From the IMG/VR virus record IMGVR_UViG_2690316148_000003: a stretch of DNA of 14,938 nucleotides; one strand, 5' to 3'. The notes under the pieces are model-generated. The model saw only the letters and a list, made by a program, of their open reading frames with translations, had not been told where the DNA came from and searched no databases. Positions 484 to 11,215 of the stretch are shown here, piece by piece (position 1 is the first letter of the stretch; every line of letters starts with the position of its first letter). Origin of the DNA: a virus. Lineage: Duplodnaviria > Heunggongvirae > Uroviricota > Caudoviricetes. Both the position numbers and the translations under genes were made by a program.

Positions 484-591
484 ATGAAATCAAAAATCAA
501 ATCGCTACTGGTCGCTGGTTATAACCACGGCTGGTTAAGTATTTCGTTTGTCGATTTCTGGTTTAAAAATCTCGACCTCAGCAGCCATTAG
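484..591 (+). CDS. Small ORF, 35 aa (MKSKIKSLLVAGYNHGWLSISFVDFWFKNLDLSSH), hypothetical
   Basis: ATG at 484 lies 4 nt after the upstream stop, with AGGTGA at 475-480 as a possible RBS. Below the ORF-track size cutoff. No recognisable family. Confidence 0.2.
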   Translation: MKSKIKSLLVAGYNHGWLSISFVDFWFKNLDLSSH

Positions 592-599
592 CTCCGTCA

Positions 600-617
600 A
601 TGGCGTTTAAACGCCAT
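600..617. promoter_or_regulatory. Perfect 18-bp palindrome ATGGCGTTTAAACGCCAT upstream of the primase-helicase gene
   Basis: Self-complementary as read; followed by an imperfect inverted repeat CAGACG...CGTCTG (about 618-652). Function (operator, terminator or origin element) not determinable from sequence. Confidence 0.5.
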
Positions 618-707
618 CAGACGCGCTGTAGTGCGATAAACGACGGTCTGACGAATACACAGGATAAAAAAATATTGCGTCAGAATGCGATTCAGGACGG
701 TTAAAGT

Positions 708-3614
708 ATGAGTCCATCAGAACTTAGCGACCTGCTTTGGGCGCAGGTTGACAGGGTGGCTCCGCACCTGTTGCCAAACGGCAAGAAAGAGGGGCATGAG
801 TGGGTTGCCGGTAACGTCAACGGTGACAAGGGAAACAGCCTTAAGGTCAACCTTAGCGGTAAGAAAAAATGGGCTGATTTCGCTGAGGGAGACGGCGGTG
901 ACATGCTTGATTTGTGGATGGCATGTCGTGGAATTAACCTGCATCAGGCTATGCAGGAAGCGAAAGCATTTCTCGGTATCAAGGATGACGATCACCATTT
1001 CGATGCCAGACGTGAGAAGAAATTCTCCAGACCTGATCGCAAGAAAATCGCCCACTACGTTACCAGAACAGAATCCCATCTTGAGTACCTGCAATCGCGT
1101 GGCATATCGCCAGAAGTCGTAAAGCGCTACGAGGTTGTCAGCGGCAAGGTGTGGAATGGAGAACGAGAACTGGATGCTCTGGTGCTTCCGTACAAACGCG
1201 ATGGTGAGTTGTTGCAGGTCAAGCGAATCAGCACTGAGCGCCCGGACGGGAAGAAAGTCATTATGGCAGAAGGTGATTGCGAACCTTGCCTGTTCGGATG
1301 GCAGGCTCTGGACGCTGGCGTGAGGGCGGTTGTGCTTTGCGAAGGCGAAATTGATTGTATGAGCTATGCGCAATACGGCATCTCGGCGTTATCCGTGCCG
1401 TTTGGTGGCGGGAAAGGCGCTAAGCAACAGTGGATTGAGTTTGAGTATCACAACCTCGACAGGTTTGAGGAAATATTCATCTCGATGGACGTTGATGATG
1501 TTGGTCGTGAAGCCGCAAGGGAAATCGCAAGCCGACTCGGTGAACATCGTTGCCGTCTTGTTACTCTGCCGTACAAAGACATCAACGAATGCCTGATGAA
1601 CGGTGTTACCGAGGATGAAATCTGGCAGTACATCGGCACGGCATCCTACTTCGATCCTGAAGAACTCTACAGCGCGCGCGAGTTTTACCAGGACACTATC
1701 AACGCTTTCTACGGCAAGCAGCAGTATCTGTTTAATCCACCGTGGGAATCTCTGGCAGATAAATTCCAGTTCCGTGAGGCAGAGTTGACGCTGGTCAATG
1801 GTGTGAACGGTCACGGAAAGGCATGCCCACTGAATGAGCCTATTCTTTTAGCTGATGGGACATGGACTACTCACGGGAATGTAAAAATTGGCGATCAGGT
1901 GGCGTCAGTAGACGGCAATCCGTCAACTGTCACTGGGATATTCCCGCAGGGTGTTAGAGATGTTTACCGAGTCACATTTGAAGATGGTCGTTATGTTGAT
2001 TGCGCAGGCGATCACCTATGGGAGGTCACTAGTCGTGGATTCACGAAAGGCGAGAAACGCCGCGTGATAGATACCTTCGGGTTGAAGCGGTTGAGTGAAA
2101 CGAAGAGGCACAAAAATGGCGTTAGGATTCCTGAAATAACTGGTGACTTTGGCGACCACTCAGAGCCATTAGCATGGGTTATCGGCTCCCTTCTCGGGGA
2201 TGGTAGTCTTAGCAATGGGAGCGTGAAGTTTTCAAACGTCGAGCCATACATGATCGAGCGTATGAAGGCTGAACTGCCTGATTACAACTTCTCTGGAGAT
2301 GGTAAGGACTGGCTGATATCAACGGCGCGTGGTCAGGTAAATCCACTCATGGAGACCCTGCGAGGTTATGGACTAATGGGGTGCACAGCAAAAAACAAAT
2401 TCATCCCTCGTGTGTTTTTTTCCGCAAATAAATCAACGCGTATAGGCATGCTGTGTGGTCTGCTTGAAACGGATGGGTATGTCGAGAAGGATGGAACGCT
2501 TGTTTTTTCCTCAGCAAGTGAAAAACTGCGCAATGGGGTTGTTCAACTGGTTAACTCACTCGGCGGGTCATGCCGGACGCGAGTTAAAACTGGCGTGACA
2601 TACACATACAAGGACGATAAGCGGCATGGGATGGATTCATACGAGGCAAGAATCAGACTGACAAGAGAAATCAGGGAGGCCATCCGTTCACCACGACTCA
2701 ATGGCAGATTAACTGCGCATCGATTCGAGGGCTGTGGGGTATTCGTCAGGAATGTTGAAAAAATCGGCAATGCAGAATGCTTGTGTATTATGGTCGATCA
2801 CCCTCGCCACCTGTATGTAACCAGGGGATATGTGGCGACGCATAACACCGAGGTTGTCGGGCATATGGCACTTGAGGCAATGCGTCAGGGTGTGAAGACG
2901 TGCATCGCGTCACTTGAGCTGAAGCCTGGTATTCTCCTTAAGCGACTTACCCGTCAGGCAACGTGCTGCAAGATGCCGCCAGTGCTGGAAATTGACTCTG
3001 CATTTAAATTTTATGACGAAAGACTTTGGGTGTTTGGCCTGACCGGAACGGCGAAAGCCGACAGGCTGATCGAAATATTCGACTACGCTCGCCGCCGATA
3101 CGGCATCCAGTTATTCATTATCGACAGCCTGATGAAATGCGGCATAGGTGACGATGACTATAACGGGCAGAAAGCGTTTGTTGACTCGATTTGTGACTTC
3201 AAAAACAAAACAAACTCCCACGTCATTCTCGTTACTCACTCCAGAAAAGGAGACAGCGAAGAAAAACCAACCGGGAAAATGGACGTGAAAGGCTCTGGAG
3301 CGATAACAGACCTGACAGACAACCTTTTCATCATCTGGCGTAACAAGGCTCGCGAGAGAGCGTTACAGAGAGTTCAGAGTGGTGAAAAGATGTCAGAGAA
3401 GGACGAACAGCTACTGGCGTCTCCTGCATCTGTTTTGATGCTTGAAAAACAACGTAACGGCGAAGGCTGGGAAGGTGGTGTTCCGTTGTTCCTTGACGAG
3501 CAATCGCACCAGTTCCTGCAACTTGAATCAGGATCGCCATATAGCTACATCGCCAATATGCCGAAATCGGAATATGACGAGGCGTGGCGACAGGAAAACG
3601 TGACGGAGTATTAA
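708..3614 (+). CDS. Bifunctional DNA primase / SF4 (DnaB-like, T7 gp4-type) replicative helicase, interrupted by an intein
   Basis: 968-aa ORF. N-terminal region has Toprim-like acidic motifs (LCEGEIDCMSYA, ISMDVDDVGREA). C-terminal half resembles the T7 gp4 helicase domain: Walker A GVNGHGK...T, then IIDSLMKCG and VTHSRKG-type motifs. In-frame stop at 702-704 fixes the start at 708. Confidence 0.9.
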   Translation: MSPSELSDLLWAQVDRVAPHLLPNGKKEGHEWVAGNVNGDKGNSLKVNLSGKKKWADFAEGDGGDMLDLWMACRGINLHQAMQEAKAFLGIKDDDHHFDARREKKFSRPDRKKIAHYVTRTESHLEYLQSRGISPEVVKRYEVVSGKVWNGERELDALVLPYKRDGELLQVKRISTERPDGKKVIMAEGDCEPCLFGWQALDAGVRAVVLCEGEIDCMSYAQYGISALSVPFGGGKGAKQQWIEFEYHNLDRFEEIFISMDVDDVGREAAREIASRLGEHRCRLVTLPYKDINECLMNGVTEDEIWQYIGTASYFDPEELYSAREFYQDTINAFYGKQQYLFNPPWESLADKFQFREAELTLVNGVNGHGKACPLNEPILLADGTWTTHGNVKIGDQVASVDGNPSTVTGIFPQGVRDVYRVTFEDGRYVDCAGDHLWEVTSRGFTKGEKRRVIDTFGLKRLSETKRHKNGVRIPEITGDFGDHSEPLAWVIGSLLGDGSLSNGSVKFSNVEPYMIERMKAELPDYNFSGDGKDWLISTARGQVNPLMETLRGYGLMGCTAKNKFIPRVFFSANKSTRIGMLCGLLETDGYVEKDGTLVFSSASEKLRNGVVQLVNSLGGSCRTRVKTGVTYTYKDDKRHGMDSYEARIRLTREIREAIRSPRLNGRLTAHRFEGCGVFVRNVEKIGNAECLCIMVDHPRHLYVTRGYVATHNTEVVGHMALEAMRQGVKTCIASLELKPGILLKRLTRQATCCKMPPVLEIDSAFKFYDERLWVFGLTGTAKADRLIEIFDYARRRYGIQLFIIDSLMKCGIGDDDYNGQKAFVDSICDFKNKTNSHVILVTHSRKGDSEEKPTGKMDVKGSGAITDLTDNLFIIWRNKARERALQRVQSGEKMSEKDEQLLASPASVLMLEKQRNGEGWEGGVPLFLDEQSHQFLQLESGSPYSYIANMPKSEYDEAWRQENVTEY
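1821..2846 (+). mobile_element. Intein (Hint domain plus LAGLIDADG homing-endonuclease domain) inserted in the helicase Walker A motif
   Basis: Insert lies between GVNGHGK and TEVVGHMALEAM. It begins ACPLNEPILLADG (Ala codon 1821-1823, Cys codon 1824-1826) and ends YVATHN (Asn codon 2844-2846), followed by Thr at +1. Two LAGLIDADG-type motifs: LAWVIGSLLGDGSL (about 2169-2210) and IGMLCGLLETDGYV (about 2442-2483). Block-B-like GRYVDCAGDHLW and block-F-like ECLCIMVDHPRHLY. N-terminal boundary uncertain by one codon (1821 or 1824). Confidence 0.7.
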
Positions 3615-3692
3615 ATGACCATCTACATCACTGAGCTAATAGCAGGCCTGCTGGTAATCGCAGGCCTTTTTATTTGGGGGAGAGGGAAGTGA
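3615..3692 (+). CDS. Small hydrophobic ORF, 25 aa (MTIYITELIAGLLVIAGLFIWGRGK); possible single-pass membrane peptide
   Basis: ATG at 3615 directly abuts the primase stop (TAAATG). Its stop overlaps the GTG start of the next ORF (GTGA at 3689-3692). Central stretch is uniformly hydrophobic. Confidence 0.3.
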   Translation: MTIYITELIAGLLVIAGLFIWGRGK

Positions 3693-3967
3693 ACGATAGC
3701 TACCGACAGTTTGAAAACTGGTGGTCAAAAGACAAAAGCCAGTTCACAGGAGACGATGAATTAAAAGAGTTTGCCTGGGTGATATGGCAGGCATCGCGAG
3801 CAGCTATTGAACTGGATATCGACTGGCCCGAATCGAATGACGACTTTTGGAAAGATGGTGAAGAAGGTGCTTATGCGATGGGTTATGAGGATGGGCGTGA
3901 CAAAACGGTAATTGCAGTAATGAAAGCCATCAGGGCCGCAGGAATCAAAGAAAAGAATTTCGATTAA
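3689..3967 (+). CDS. Hypothetical acidic protein (about 92 aa)
   Basis: Track ORF 3674..3967 uses a TTG start. GTG at 3689 is preceded by GGGGGAGAGGGAA (RBS-like). No family recognised. Confidence 0.5.
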   Translation: MNDSYRQFENWWSKDKSQFTGDDELKEFAWVIWQASRAAIELDIDWPESNDDFWKDGEEGAYAMGYEDGRDKTVIAVMKAIRAAGIKEKNFD

Positions 3968-4098
3968 GCAAATATCACTTCAATAAATCGCTTTTAAGGC
4001 ATCACAATCGCTCTGTAGCGAGGTAAACGCGTGCAAGGTATTTATATAGCAGCGAGAATGAAAAATGCGTCAGAATACGTTTGAGGAGGTTTTAAGAA

Positions 4099-4314
4099 AT
4101 GAGTTCGTTGACTGAGCTTGTCCGCGCCGACTTTCAGGAGAACATTGGTCGTGCAAAGCGGTACTGGTCTGCTTCCAGACTTCCGACTGGCGAGAGACAG
4201 AAAAACGCCCCTAAGCCACGGAGCTATCCGCGTGACCGCGTTCTTCGCCGGTTGGTTAAAATCGATAATGATTTTCAGTGTGACAGAATTATCCGGAGTC
4301 TGGATTTAAAGTGA
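4099..4314 (+). CDS. Hypothetical basic protein (71 aa)
   Basis: Strong RBS GAGGAGG at 4083-4089, 9 nt upstream of ATG 4099. No family recognised. Confidence 0.6.
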   Translation: MSSLTELVRADFQENIGRAKRYWSASRLPTGERQKNAPKPRSYPRDRVLRRLVKIDNDFQCDRIIRSLDLK

Positions 4315-5892: not shown

Positions 5893-6001
5893 ATGCATTC
5901 AAGGCCTGTAGTTGACGACAACACATATCCGGGGCTATATTCCTCACGCGCCAGCAAAATCTGGCGTCGGGATTGGAACCCCGGATATCGAAACGGTGCA
6001 T

Positions 6002-6021
6002 ACCGCGCTGGCGGTTTTTTT
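6002..6021 (+). terminator. Candidate rho-independent terminator (plus orientation)
   Basis: ACCGC-GCTG-GCGGT hairpin followed by seven T (6015-6021). Short stem, so moderate confidence. Confidence 0.4.
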
Positions 6022-6184
6022 ATGCGCTAAGCACAGTCACATTCGCGATTTATGGCGGGCTGTGTGGGGGCACCGAAAGGTGCGCCGGATGTTTCGACCG
6101 GTAGTTCCAACCCTGCACAGTTCGCCACCCGATGATTGGAACCTGAAGGTGGTGAGGTAAAAATTATCGAAACGCGAGGTCGTT

Positions 6185-6871
6185 ATGACTGTTCAAGTTG
6201 CTGTCAAAAACCTTTCCCCTGTCACTTATAACCAGATTCCTGTAATCACAACTGAGTTACTCGCCCGCCTTTACGGAACAGAAGCAATCCGTATACAGCA
6301 GAATCACCATGAAAATAAATCTCGATTTATTGAGGGAAAACACTTCTTTAAAGCTGTTGGTGATGAGCTCAAAAATTTGCGACTAGTTTTAAACGAGTCG
6401 CAAAATGAGGTGAAAATTTCTCCAAAAACCCGCTCCCTCATCCTCTGGACAGAACGCGGCGCAGCTCGTCACGCGAAGATGCTCGAAACCGATCAGGCAT
6501 GGGACGTGTTCGAAAAACTGGAAGACTGCTATTTCAGCCAGACTTCGAAAAGCGCAGGTCATCACGAGAAGAAAACCAGCGAGCTTTCTGCAAAAGATGC
6601 AAACAGTCTGGTATGGTTGTGGGATTATGCCAACCGCTCACAGGCATTATTCCGCGAACTGTATCCGGCGCTAAGACAAATTCAGTCTAACTATTCCGGC
6701 AGATGCCACGACTACGGTCATGAGTTCTCGTATGTTATCGGAATGGCGAGAGACGTTTTAATCAATCACACACGAGATGTTGATATTAATGAGCCAGACG
6801 GACCAACGAATCTTTCTGCATGGGTAAGACTTAAGAACAAAGAATTACCTCCTTCACTACATCACTACTGA
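6185..6871 (+). CDS. ORF6N-domain (antirepressor-type N-terminal domain) protein with an unassigned C-terminal half
   Basis: GAGGT RBS 4 nt before ATG 6185. N-terminal region ([16 protein letters not shown]...[22 protein letters not shown]...[15 protein letters not shown]) fits the ORF6N pattern as recalled. C-terminal ~110 aa not recognised. Confidence 0.7.
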
Positions 6872-8326: not shown

Positions 8327-8511
8327 ACGCCACAATTCAAACGATACCAGAGCTTCTTATCCAGACACGAGGCAATCAGACCGAAGTGGCGAGGATGCTT
8401 TCCTGCGCAAGAGGAACAGTGCTCAAGTACAACCGAGACAGCAAAGGCGAGCGTCACGTAATAGTTAACGGCGTCCTGATGGTCAAACAGGGCAAGAGGG
8501 GAAGACGATGA
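8323..8511 (+). CDS. ninH: NinH-like protein
   Basis: 62 aa. GNQTEVARMLSCARGTVLKY...VIVNGVLMV resembles lambda NinH. Located immediately upstream of Q, as in lambda. Confidence 0.65.
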   Translation: MNATIQTIPELLIQTRGNQTEVARMLSCARGTVLKYNRDSKGERHVIVNGVLMVKQGKRGRR

Positions 8512-9131
8512 GACTCGAAAGCGTAGCTAAATTTCATTCGCCAAAAAGCCCGATGATGAGCGACTCACCACGGGCTACGGCTTCTGACTCTCTTTCCGGT
8601 ACTGATGTGATGGCTGCTATGGGGATGGCGCAATCACAAGCCGGATTCGGAATGGCTGCATTTTGCGGTAAGCATGAACTCAGCCAGAACGACAAACAAA
8701 AGGCTATCAACTATCTGATGCAATTTGCACACAAGGTATCGGGGAAATACCGTGGTGTGGCAAAGCTCGAAGGAAATACTAAGGCAAAGGTACTGCAAGT
8801 GCTCGCAACATTCGCTTATGCGGATTATTGCCGTAGTGCCGCGACGCCGGGCGCAAGATGCAGAGATTGCCACGGAACAGGTCTGGCAGTTGATATAGCC
8901 AAAACAGAGCAGTGGGGGAGAGTTGTCGAGAAAGAGTGCGGAAGATGCAAAGGTGTCGGCTATTCAAGGATGCCAGCAAGTGCAGCATATCGCGCTGTAA
9001 CGATGCTAATCCCAAACCTCACCCAACCCACATGGTCACGCACTGTTAAGCCGCTGTATGACGCTCTGGTGGTGCAATGCCACAAAGAAGAGTCAATCGC
9101 AGACAACATTTTGAATGCGGTCACACGTTAG
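8508..9131 (+). CDS. Q: Late-gene antiterminator Q (lambda-type)
   Basis: 207-aa product appears essentially identical to phage lambda Q as recalled (MRLESVAKFHSPKSPMMSDSPRATASDSLSG...CRDCHGTG...CGRCKGVGYSRMP...NAVTR). Confidence 0.9.
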   Translation: MRLESVAKFHSPKSPMMSDSPRATASDSLSGTDVMAAMGMAQSQAGFGMAAFCGKHELSQNDKQKAINYLMQFAHKVSGKYRGVAKLEGNTKAKVLQVLATFAYADYCRSAATPGARCRDCHGTGLAVDIAKTEQWGRVVEKECGRCKGVGYSRMPASAAYRAVTMLIPNLTQPTWSRTVKPLYDALVVQCHKEESIADNILNAVTR

Positions 9132-9391: not shown

Positions 9392-9466
9392 GGGTCAGTC
9401 GTATAAAGGTCATTACGGAAGGCTGTTAACCTTCTTATCGTTGTTCGAGTCCACGCTGTCCCGCCA
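9392..9466 (+). tRNA. tRNA-like gene, anticodon GUU (Asn), with mismatches in acceptor, D and T stems; possibly degenerate
   Basis: Hand-folded cloverleaf: acceptor GGGTCAG/CTGTCCC (one T-T mismatch), perfect anticodon stem GAAGG/CCTTC with loop CTGTTAA, T-loop TTCGAGT, discriminator G, encoded CCA. Confidence 0.45.
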
Positions 9467-9471
9467 AATAT

Positions 9472-9547
9472 GCTGGTTTAGCTCTAATGGTAGAGCAGTC
9501 GCCTTGTAAGCGAATGGGTAGCGGTTCAAGTCCGTTAACCAGCACCA
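9472..9547 (+). tRNA. tRNA, anticodon UGU (Thr)
   Basis: Hand-folded cloverleaf: perfect 7-bp acceptor stem GCTGGTT/AACCAGC, D-stem GCTC/GAGC, anticodon loop CTTGTAA, T-arm AGCGG-TTCAAGT-CCGTT, discriminator A, encoded CCA. 76 nt. Confidence 0.75.
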
Positions 9548-10864: not shown

Positions 10865-11215
10865 ATGCCATCACTAATCCCACGTGCCTGCCGTAAGCGT
10901 GGATGTGCAGGTACAACCACAGACAGTTCGGGTTACTGCGATAAACATCGCGGTGAAGGCTGGGTGCAGCACCAGCGCGGACTGAGCCGCCACCAGCGTG
11001 GCTATGGCTCAAAATGGACGGTGATTCGTGCCCGTATTCTGAAGCGCGATAAAGGTCTGTGTCAGTTGTGTCTGCGTGTCGGTGTGGTGAGCGAGGCGAA
11101 AACCGTCGACCACATCATCCCGAAAGCGCATGGCGGAACAGACGCAGACAGCAACCTGCAGAGTCTGTGCTGGCCCTGCCATAAAGCGAAAACAGCGCGC
11201 GAACGAATCCGGTGA
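10865..11215 (+). CDS. HNH endonuclease (packaging-associated, HK97 gp74-like)
   Basis: 116 aa with Cys pairs and an HNH motif (VDHIIPKAHGG...NLQSLCWPCHKAKT). Positioned directly upstream of the small terminase. Confidence 0.85.
   Translation: MPSLIPRACRKRGCAGTTTDSSGYCDKHRGEGWVQHQRGLSRHQRGYGSKWTVIRARILKRDKGLCQLCLRVGVVSEAKTVDHIIPKAHGGTDADSNLQSLCWPCHKAKTARERIR

Follow-up and report, generated by a model that had tools for sequence, protein, structure and literature searches.

The 14-nt motif that recurs upstream of two start codons appears, from comparison of related phages, to be the best-kept 3' end of a non-coding cassette of ~115-130 nt that is reused before early genes. The window, as we call the whole 14,938-nt stretch analysed here, is part of a lambdoid genome, a mosaic of Stx-phage and P22-like parts that runs in the direction of the early-right operon. 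Two of its blocks, 592-707 and 3968-4098, derive from a single intergenic cassette of that operon and have since diverged. From the 5' side the window codes for the end of an O-like initiator (to 480), a 35-codon ORF and a primase/helicase, followed by a tR2-type terminator, the phrog_343 ORF, the DUF7301 ORF, a Lar-like gene, a NinB gene and a methyltransferase gene. An isrK/C4-ant immunity region, Q, two tRNAs, lysis genes and terminase genes come after these. Both cassettes and all the genes concerned are transcribed from the + strand in a single operon (Table 1).

Table 1. Coordinates of the two cassette copies, their parts and the adjoining genes in the window.
Feature	Position	Strand	Basis
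35-codon ORF, conserved, at the O-like gene/primase junction; its stop is followed by cassette copy 1	484..591	+	translation
Cassette copy 1 (site 1), non-coding, from the small ORF to the primase start	592..707	+	homology to 3968-4098
Box 1 of copy 1, perfect 18-nt palindrome ATGGCGTTTAAACGCCAT, predicted mRNA hairpin	600..617	+	
Box 2 of copy 1, CGCGC-UGUA-GUGCG hairpin; conserved CTGT.G.G	622..635	+	
TCTGACG, complement of the motif's CGTCAGA, in the variable centre of copy 1	647..653	+	minimum-free-energy fold
A-rich tract ATAAAAAAATAT upstream of motif copy 1	664..675	+	
Motif copy 1, TGCGTCAGAATGCG; universally conserved part CAGAATGCG at 681-689	676..689	+	
Shine-Dalgarno AGGA of the primase gene	694..697	+	invariant columns in the three-family alignment A3
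Primase/helicase gene, 968 aa, downstream of copy 1	708..3614	+	
Lambda tR2-type terminator hairpin	3644..3667	+	terminator scan; near-identity to lambda spacer
phrog_343 ORF, GTG start; its stop is followed by cassette copy 2	3689..3967	+	
Cassette copy 2 (site 2), non-coding, from the phrog_343 ORF to the DUF7301 gene	3968..4098	+	
Box 1 of copy 2, AATCGCTTTTAAGGCATCA, degenerate counterpart of the copy-1 palindrome	3986..4004	+	
Box 2 of copy 2, CGCU-CUGU-AGCG	4009..4020	+	
Hypervariable centre of cassette copy 2	4021..4058	+	nucleotide diversity 0.10
Motif copy 2, TGCGTCAGAATACG	4066..4079	+	
Shine-Dalgarno GAGGAGG of the DUF7301 gene	4083..4089	+	
DUF7301 gene, 71 aa, downstream of copy 2	4099..4314	+	

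Other features of the window were recorded in their own right. Tandem 21-24-nt repeats (GGGGTGGGGCAGGAGCTGCCC) at 1-58, within the O-like gene, are probably origin iterons. The primase/helicase carries an intein-like insert (residues ~364-731) between its Toprim and AAA/helicase parts; in the insert, a Hint domain occupies aa 379-424 and a homing endonuclease of the LAGLIDADG type aa 576-634. In relatives the enzyme is 626 aa long and the insert is absent. P1/P7-type immunity RNAs (c4 a1b1 targets, isrK and C4 antisense RNA), all exceeding Rfam gathering scores, lie at 5935-6132 with an antirepressor-like ORF (6185-6871) downstream. A tRNA-Asn (GTT) and a tRNA-Thr (TGT) are encoded at 9392-9547, downstream of ORF 8508-9131, which we take to be Q-like. 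At the matching position 933W has a tRNA-Ile and two tRNA-Arg before stx2.

The original prediction placed TGCGTCAGAATGCG 18 nt before the primase ATG and TGCGTCAGAATACG 19 nt before the ATG of ORF 4099-4314, each motif preceded by an A-run and the two 13/14 identical. All of this was confirmed. The argument that a 13/14 match is unlikely by chance fails for the 14-mer alone, as the window yields 23 distinct direct 14-mer pairs that differ at one position or none, and dinucleotide shuffles yield 15.7 +/- 3.9. It is the flanks that set the pair apart. Local alignment of 591-707 with 3968-4098 joined ~105 nt with a score of 38, compared with a shuffle maximum of 30 (0/2000). The parts upstream of the motif by themselves scored 30, a value reached in 1/2000 shuffles. 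The spacer from motif to start codon by itself had no significant similarity (394/2000 shuffles reached its score). The two blocks are near-equal in length, align almost gap-free and were also detected as repeat family D4. A chance repeat is therefore ruled out for the pair by flanking homology exceeding that of the shuffles, and the motifs are equally distant from their start codons because the whole blocks are homologous. Judged from these alignments, the similarity reflects shared descent of the whole ~115-nt intergenic cassette and not an independently kept 14-nt site.

A profile HMM was built from block-1 and block-2 variants. With nhmmer the profile matched 592-707 at E = 1.4e-22 and 3968-4098 at E = 6.6e-33. 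Block 1 is rare, being found in two of 5426 complete E. coli genomes, Klebsiella phage phiKp_30 and a handful of IMG/VR contigs; a search of metagenomes for additional site-1 variants found none. Block 2 is common, with 221 phage records and 633 places in 465 of the 5426 E. coli genomes, and in the examined loci its context is constant (phrog_343 ORF, block, DUF7301). In EDL933, a 933W-type lysogen, the cassette occupies NZ_CP008957.1 1349312-1349442.

Both copies are optional, since relatives lack copy 1 or copy 2. Where copy 1 is missing, the 35-codon ORF and the primase overlap by their stop and start codons (ATGA in L135; TAATG in L001/Stx2a_F451). The gap between small ORF and primase is 119-121 nt in the carriers L002 and L004 and 116 nt in the window (591 to 708). 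L134 has the same replication module with a NUMOD4 HNH endonuclease gene at the junction of the 35-codon ORF and the primase. The 35-codon ORF (MKSKIKSLLVAGYNHGWLSISFVDFWFKNL...) is normally coupled to the primase through overlapping stop and start codons. The O-like/primase junction is an insertion hot spot, and L288 has another HNH gene after the primase. In one site-1 allele (L244, 7960-8020) the stop of the ORF is changed from TAG to TAT, with readthrough of box 1 and box 2 to a TGA. Many lambdoid phages are without copy 2; their DUF7301 lies directly behind tR2 and only GGAGGCTTTAAGAAATG/GGAGGCTTTAAGAAATGAGT is common with the window. GGAGGYTTTAAGAAATG is the DUF7301 gene's own leader in these cassette-free phages. 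As they share only GGAGGCTTTAAGAAATGAGT, that leader begins ~20 nt before the ATG, and by this comparison the motif belongs to the upstream spacer and not to the DUF7301 gene.

A third, more diverged cassette was found by profile HMM match in the interval from a degenerate tR2 to the GTG with which ninB starts, with E = 5e-11 to 6e-12 in phiKp_30 and L127. It is also present in L246, L247, L252, L287 and E. coli N32; the loci listed for the tR2-ninB family are L004, L127, L246, L247, L252, L287 and L288. Like site 1, this site 3 is rare (3/5426 E. coli genomes). At the positions of the motif's TGCG it has TCAC, TTAG, TTCG or TTAC, and one allele carries GCAGAATGCG, while the sequence from CAGAATGCG through the Shine-Dalgarno (SD) is retained. 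The 5' part of site 3 is site-2-like and its 3' part, GCGATTCAGGA, is site-1-like. Loci L245 and L289 (E. coli SW070919) are hybrids of another kind: site-3-like on the 5' side up to the core, they continue beyond it as site-2-type sequence (TTT.AGGAGG.TTTAAGAAATG) into DUF7301. The structure of these hybrids and of site 3 indicates that crossovers fell repeatedly at the core.

The same junction sequence thus stands before three downstream genes (primase, DUF7301 and ninB) and behind three upstream contexts (the small ORF, the phrog_343 ORF and tR2). Its conserved non-coding core adjoins the SD, the cassette begins at the upstream stop codon or the tR2 tail, and in the recombinants L245 and L289 the crossover maps to the conserved patch. 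The adjoining tR2 leader seems, from its sequence, to follow the same principle of reuse. Window positions 3615-3690 are nearly identical to the lambda ren-ninB spacer, tR2 hairpin included, and the lambda-type tR2 with its GGGGGAGAGGGAAGT leader, which in lambda stands before ninB, stands before the phrog_343 ORF in the window. Within 3615-3692 the tR2 hairpin is part of a 25-codon hydrophobic ORF (MTIYITELIAGLLVIAGLFIWGRGK), the stop of which overlaps the GTG of the next ORF (GTGA); aligned lambda keeps that ATG before ninB.

We also examined which parts of the cassette are kept. In the three-family alignment (A3), 37% of the 117 columns are invariant. They cluster in AAT.G..TTTAA, in CTGT.G.G...TAA.C, in a few A's and above all in TCAGAAT.CG.TT.AGGA.G.TT, where 17 of the 22 columns are invariant (permutation p = 0.00075 against the overall 37%). 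Only CAGAATGCG-WTT-N-AGGA(G/C)G, which runs into the SD, is kept in all three families; conservation of the motif's 5' TGCG does not extend to the third. In each of the three contexts, 17-19 nt separate the core from the start codon. Most site-2 phages carry TGCGTCAGAATGCG (...AATGCG), identical to site 1, the exceptions being the window's lineage (AATACG) and three loci with AATGTG. Divergence inside each cassette family is low, so much of the invariance within families is uninformative. The 9-10 nt upstream of the SD are conserved beyond the need of a generic leader, leaving room for a specific binding partner.

The reading that we tentatively favour, possible rather than firm, is that motif and cassette are a portable leader and recombination linker. 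Diverged paralogues of the cassette occupy gene junctions in the rightward early (replication-nin) operon of lambdoid phages, each ending at the SD of whichever gene comes next. As the cassette ends there, CAGAATGCG-WTT-N-AGGA(G/C)G would be the 5' part of that gene's ribosome-binding region. The cassette would supply a self-contained translation-initiation leader made of a strong SD, an A-rich tract and possibly a weak hairpin, and with this leader the downstream gene would no longer be coupled to the ORF or terminator before it. The conserved end of the cassette may double as a short homology patch for re-assorting cassettes and downstream genes. Two papers describe Red/Rad52-type recombinases as using short or diverged homologies (PMC2327257, PMC3945230). 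Reuse of the cassette is an ordinary outcome of modular phage evolution, and nothing shows a switch.

Of the common regulatory site first proposed, one part stands: the two sites are related and the motif is kept in related phages. The other part, an independently retained 14-nt site, does not. As to further copies, relatives do carry the motif, and the window has only the two at 0-1 mismatch, the next-best match having two mismatches (11033-11046, minus strand). The proposal is partly supported in that the sites are related and relevance to the mRNA leader is probable, and among the options first named (promoter element, operator or RNA-level control) a role in translation initiation at the RNA level is the most plausible.

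The alternative of a neutral relic, in which leftover spacer DNA was spread by recombination and the core is a functionless chance survivor, is rather unlikely, and it survives best among the rivals. It would agree with 13/14 repeats occurring at chance frequency in the window, with both copies being dispensable in related phages and with the rarity of sites 1 and 3 (two and three of 5426 genomes). By our own estimate, a run of 14 identities in ~105 positions at ~62% identity has a probability of only ~0.05. However, the core is common to three families that otherwise differ by 35-40%, the clustering of conserved columns is significant, and site 2 has been maintained, its flanks almost unchanged, in hundreds of phages.

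Structure predictions bear on how such a leader might act. RNAalifold predicted a hairpin, AWUGCGU-CAGA-AUGCGWU, around the motif, in which 84% of the cells of the three-family alignment pair (helix 2). Compatible changes include an A-U/U-A swap between site 1 and site 2, U.G to C-G in L004 and L244, and G-C to G.U in the AATGTG allele. The covariation score of the motif and box-2 helices taken jointly was reached by 15 of 500 shuffles. Whole-block folds gave z-scores of -2.6 for site 1, +0.8 for site 2 and -0.8 to -2.2 for site 3, and in the minimum-free-energy fold of copy 1 TCTGACG pairs with the motif. A search of Rfam with 592-707 and 3968-4098 gave no match at E <= 1. On the other side, the motif hairpin is weak (-4 to -5 kcal/mol), a G-to-A change breaks it in site 2 of the window, and it is absent from site 3, so that the structure of the leader stands as a prediction.

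In the box 1 and box 2 hairpins, allelic transitions stay G.U-compatible on the plus strand only, as with a C->T allele of box 1 that retains a G.U pair. These transitions, few as the events are, would fit a constraint at the mRNA level. A minus-strand terminator or antisense RNA was rejected, as the plus-strand G.U pairs would there be C.A mismatches and the terminator scan was negative.

A/U-rich, S1-dependent translational enhancers and ompA-type 5' hairpins are known from bacterial mRNA leaders. The cassette resembles them in having an A-rich tract and a small predicted hairpin directly 5' of a strong SD. Unlike ompA-type leaders, its hairpin has little stability and does not occur in all families.

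The leader model leaves the hypervariable centre of the cassette unexplained. Across 69 loci collected independently of the motif, the 38 nt at 4021-4058 have a nucleotide diversity of 0.10, compared with 0.002-0.02 in adjacent spacer parts and genes. Almost all changes in the site-2 centre are transitions, and its alternative alleles are often palindromic (ACGCGT/GCACGTGC, GGCATGCC/GGTATACC). In sites 1 and 3 the equivalent position is a predicted hairpin with allele-specific stem and loop; in the site-1 alleles L127, L004 and L244 such a local hairpin replaces TCTGACG. A sigma-28-like GCCGATAA in the site-2 centre was discarded, as it falls in the hypervariable zone and is missing from the window's allele.

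A more ambitious version of the leader reading would make the cassette an undescribed family of portable cis-acting RNA leaders, multi-hairpin and intercistronic, in which a factor (protein, sRNA or RNase) would recognise CAGAAUGCG at the conserved 3' end beside the SD, the hypervariable central hairpin would encode allele-specific information, and the element would be at once regulatory unit and dedicated linker, corresponding in lambdoid phages to the PeSL cassettes of T4. We regard this combination as doubtful. No published description of the cassette sequence was found in a literature search.

It is also improbable that the motif is the common binding site of a trans-acting factor, be it a DNA operator, a translational repressor site or an sRNA target, which would co-regulate the primase and DUF7301 and, in other phages, ninB. 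The invariance of CAGAATGCG in three diverged families exceeds what an SD needs, in site 2 the motif region repeats ATGCGT exactly, in direct orientation and at a 10-bp period (ATGCGT-N4-ATGCGT), and translational operators typically lie where the motif does, immediately before the SD. However, site 3 has TCAC, TTAG, TTCG or TTAC in place of the first repeat unit, which is also altered in site-1 alleles (TCGCG). The motif has no dyad symmetry, and no candidate regulator was identified. With no third copy at <=1 mismatch in the window, a regulon-like operator was rejected. Exact motif matches in viral contigs outside the cassette families were unrelated sequences in about the number expected by chance, and so were matches to a longer pattern (with the downstream TT and AGGA) in genome contigs outside these families. 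As for an RNA target, no sequence complementary to the motif is present in the window, which also disposes of its own C4/isrK RNA as a partner. The terms 'ninB', 'ren' and 'replication' do not occur in the text of the Hfq-CLIP paper, and the subject of the HnrS sRNA paper is late genes.

The activator sites of lambda CII, TTGC-N6-TTGC across the -35 region of pRE, pI and paQ, offer a partial likeness. Site 1 reads TTGC-GTCAGA-ATGC with the same 10-bp period and, as in the geometry of pRE, a -10-like TAAAGT follows after 13 nt. The likeness fails in that site 1 has ATGC as its second half-site, ATGC makes up both half-sites of site 2, whose -10 is too poor to be usable, and the transcript would start inside the primase ORF. 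The sole TTGC is thus the first half-site of site 1, which reads TCGC in alleles L004 and L244; site 3 is without a first half-site. Two other candidates were set aside. A leader peptide (uORF MRQNA...) would begin at a TTG of site 1 that is lost in L004 and L244 (TCG), and the frames differ between sites 2 and 3. A nut/boxA-like CGCTCT in box 2 is lost in site 3.

Equally hard to sustain is a promoter borne by the cassette, weak or activator-dependent, with the motif as an initial transcribed or promoter-proximal element through which nin genes or the primase would be expressed independently of read-through from pR. A non-coding gap of 116-131 nt is unusual for a tightly packed operon, and tR2 stands upstream of copies 2 and 3. 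Site 2 has a -10-like GAGAAT 7 nt before the motif and a GTGCAA 17-18 nt further upstream, and the hypervariable zone covers the putative spacer while both hexamers are nearly invariant. But a sigma-70 consensus scan of both blocks gave no site at the threshold of 9 of 12 hexamer matches, and the promoter element originally considered possible has no sigma-70-like counterpart at either motif. The best candidates, GTGCAA-18-GAGAAT in site 2 and CTGACG-17-AATATT in site 1, reach 7-8 of 12. The candidate hexamers are conserved neither from family to family nor from allele to allele, and their spacing varies: the -10-like hexamer is GATAAA in site 1 and GAGATG in site 3, and site 1 is without a -35. 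The upstream boxes are 32-37 nt from the motif by our own count, and a 14-nt deletion in L252 and L288 shifts this distance.

Set beside known systems, the cassette end of the portable leader and linker reading appears, as far as sequence goes, to be a known kind of lambdoid boundary or linker sequence. The modular-evolution model of lambdoid phages is attributed to Susskind and Botstein, and Clark et al. reportedly described nin-region boundary sequences from a comparison with HK620 in 2001. Like lambdoid linkers, the cassette end is a short conserved non-coding sequence at early-right and nin gene boundaries that stands before different genes, and hybrids have their crossover at the conserved patch. 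Unlike them, it belongs to a complete cassette of ~115-130 nt in which several boxes are conserved and the centre is hypervariable, the cassette is present twice in one genome, and its linker role is putative. The nearest functional analogue may be PeSL (promoter-early stem-loop), the mobile regulatory cassettes of T4-type phages that Arbiol et al. are said to have reported in 2010. Both are repeated intergenic cassettes that flank optional genes and have stem-loops, predicted ones in the lambdoid case, and PeSL combine expression signals for the downstream gene with shuffling, two roles that are proposed for the lambdoid cassette as well. In contrast to PeSL, the cassette is without a promoter consensus, belongs to another phage group and has no sequence relation to them.

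These results carry a caution, namely that a repeated motif before two genes of a mosaic phage can be inherited spacer DNA and not an operator. Their practical value is modest: a common 131-nt "empty" gap in Stx prophages can be annotated, and there is a defined element for testing the expression of primase and nin genes. If the portable leader and linker reading is true, the cassette would illustrate, at the level of sequence, how lambdoid phages (Shiga-toxin phages among them) shuttle replication-nin genes, with recombination at a short conserved leader also giving the incoming gene its ribosome-binding region.
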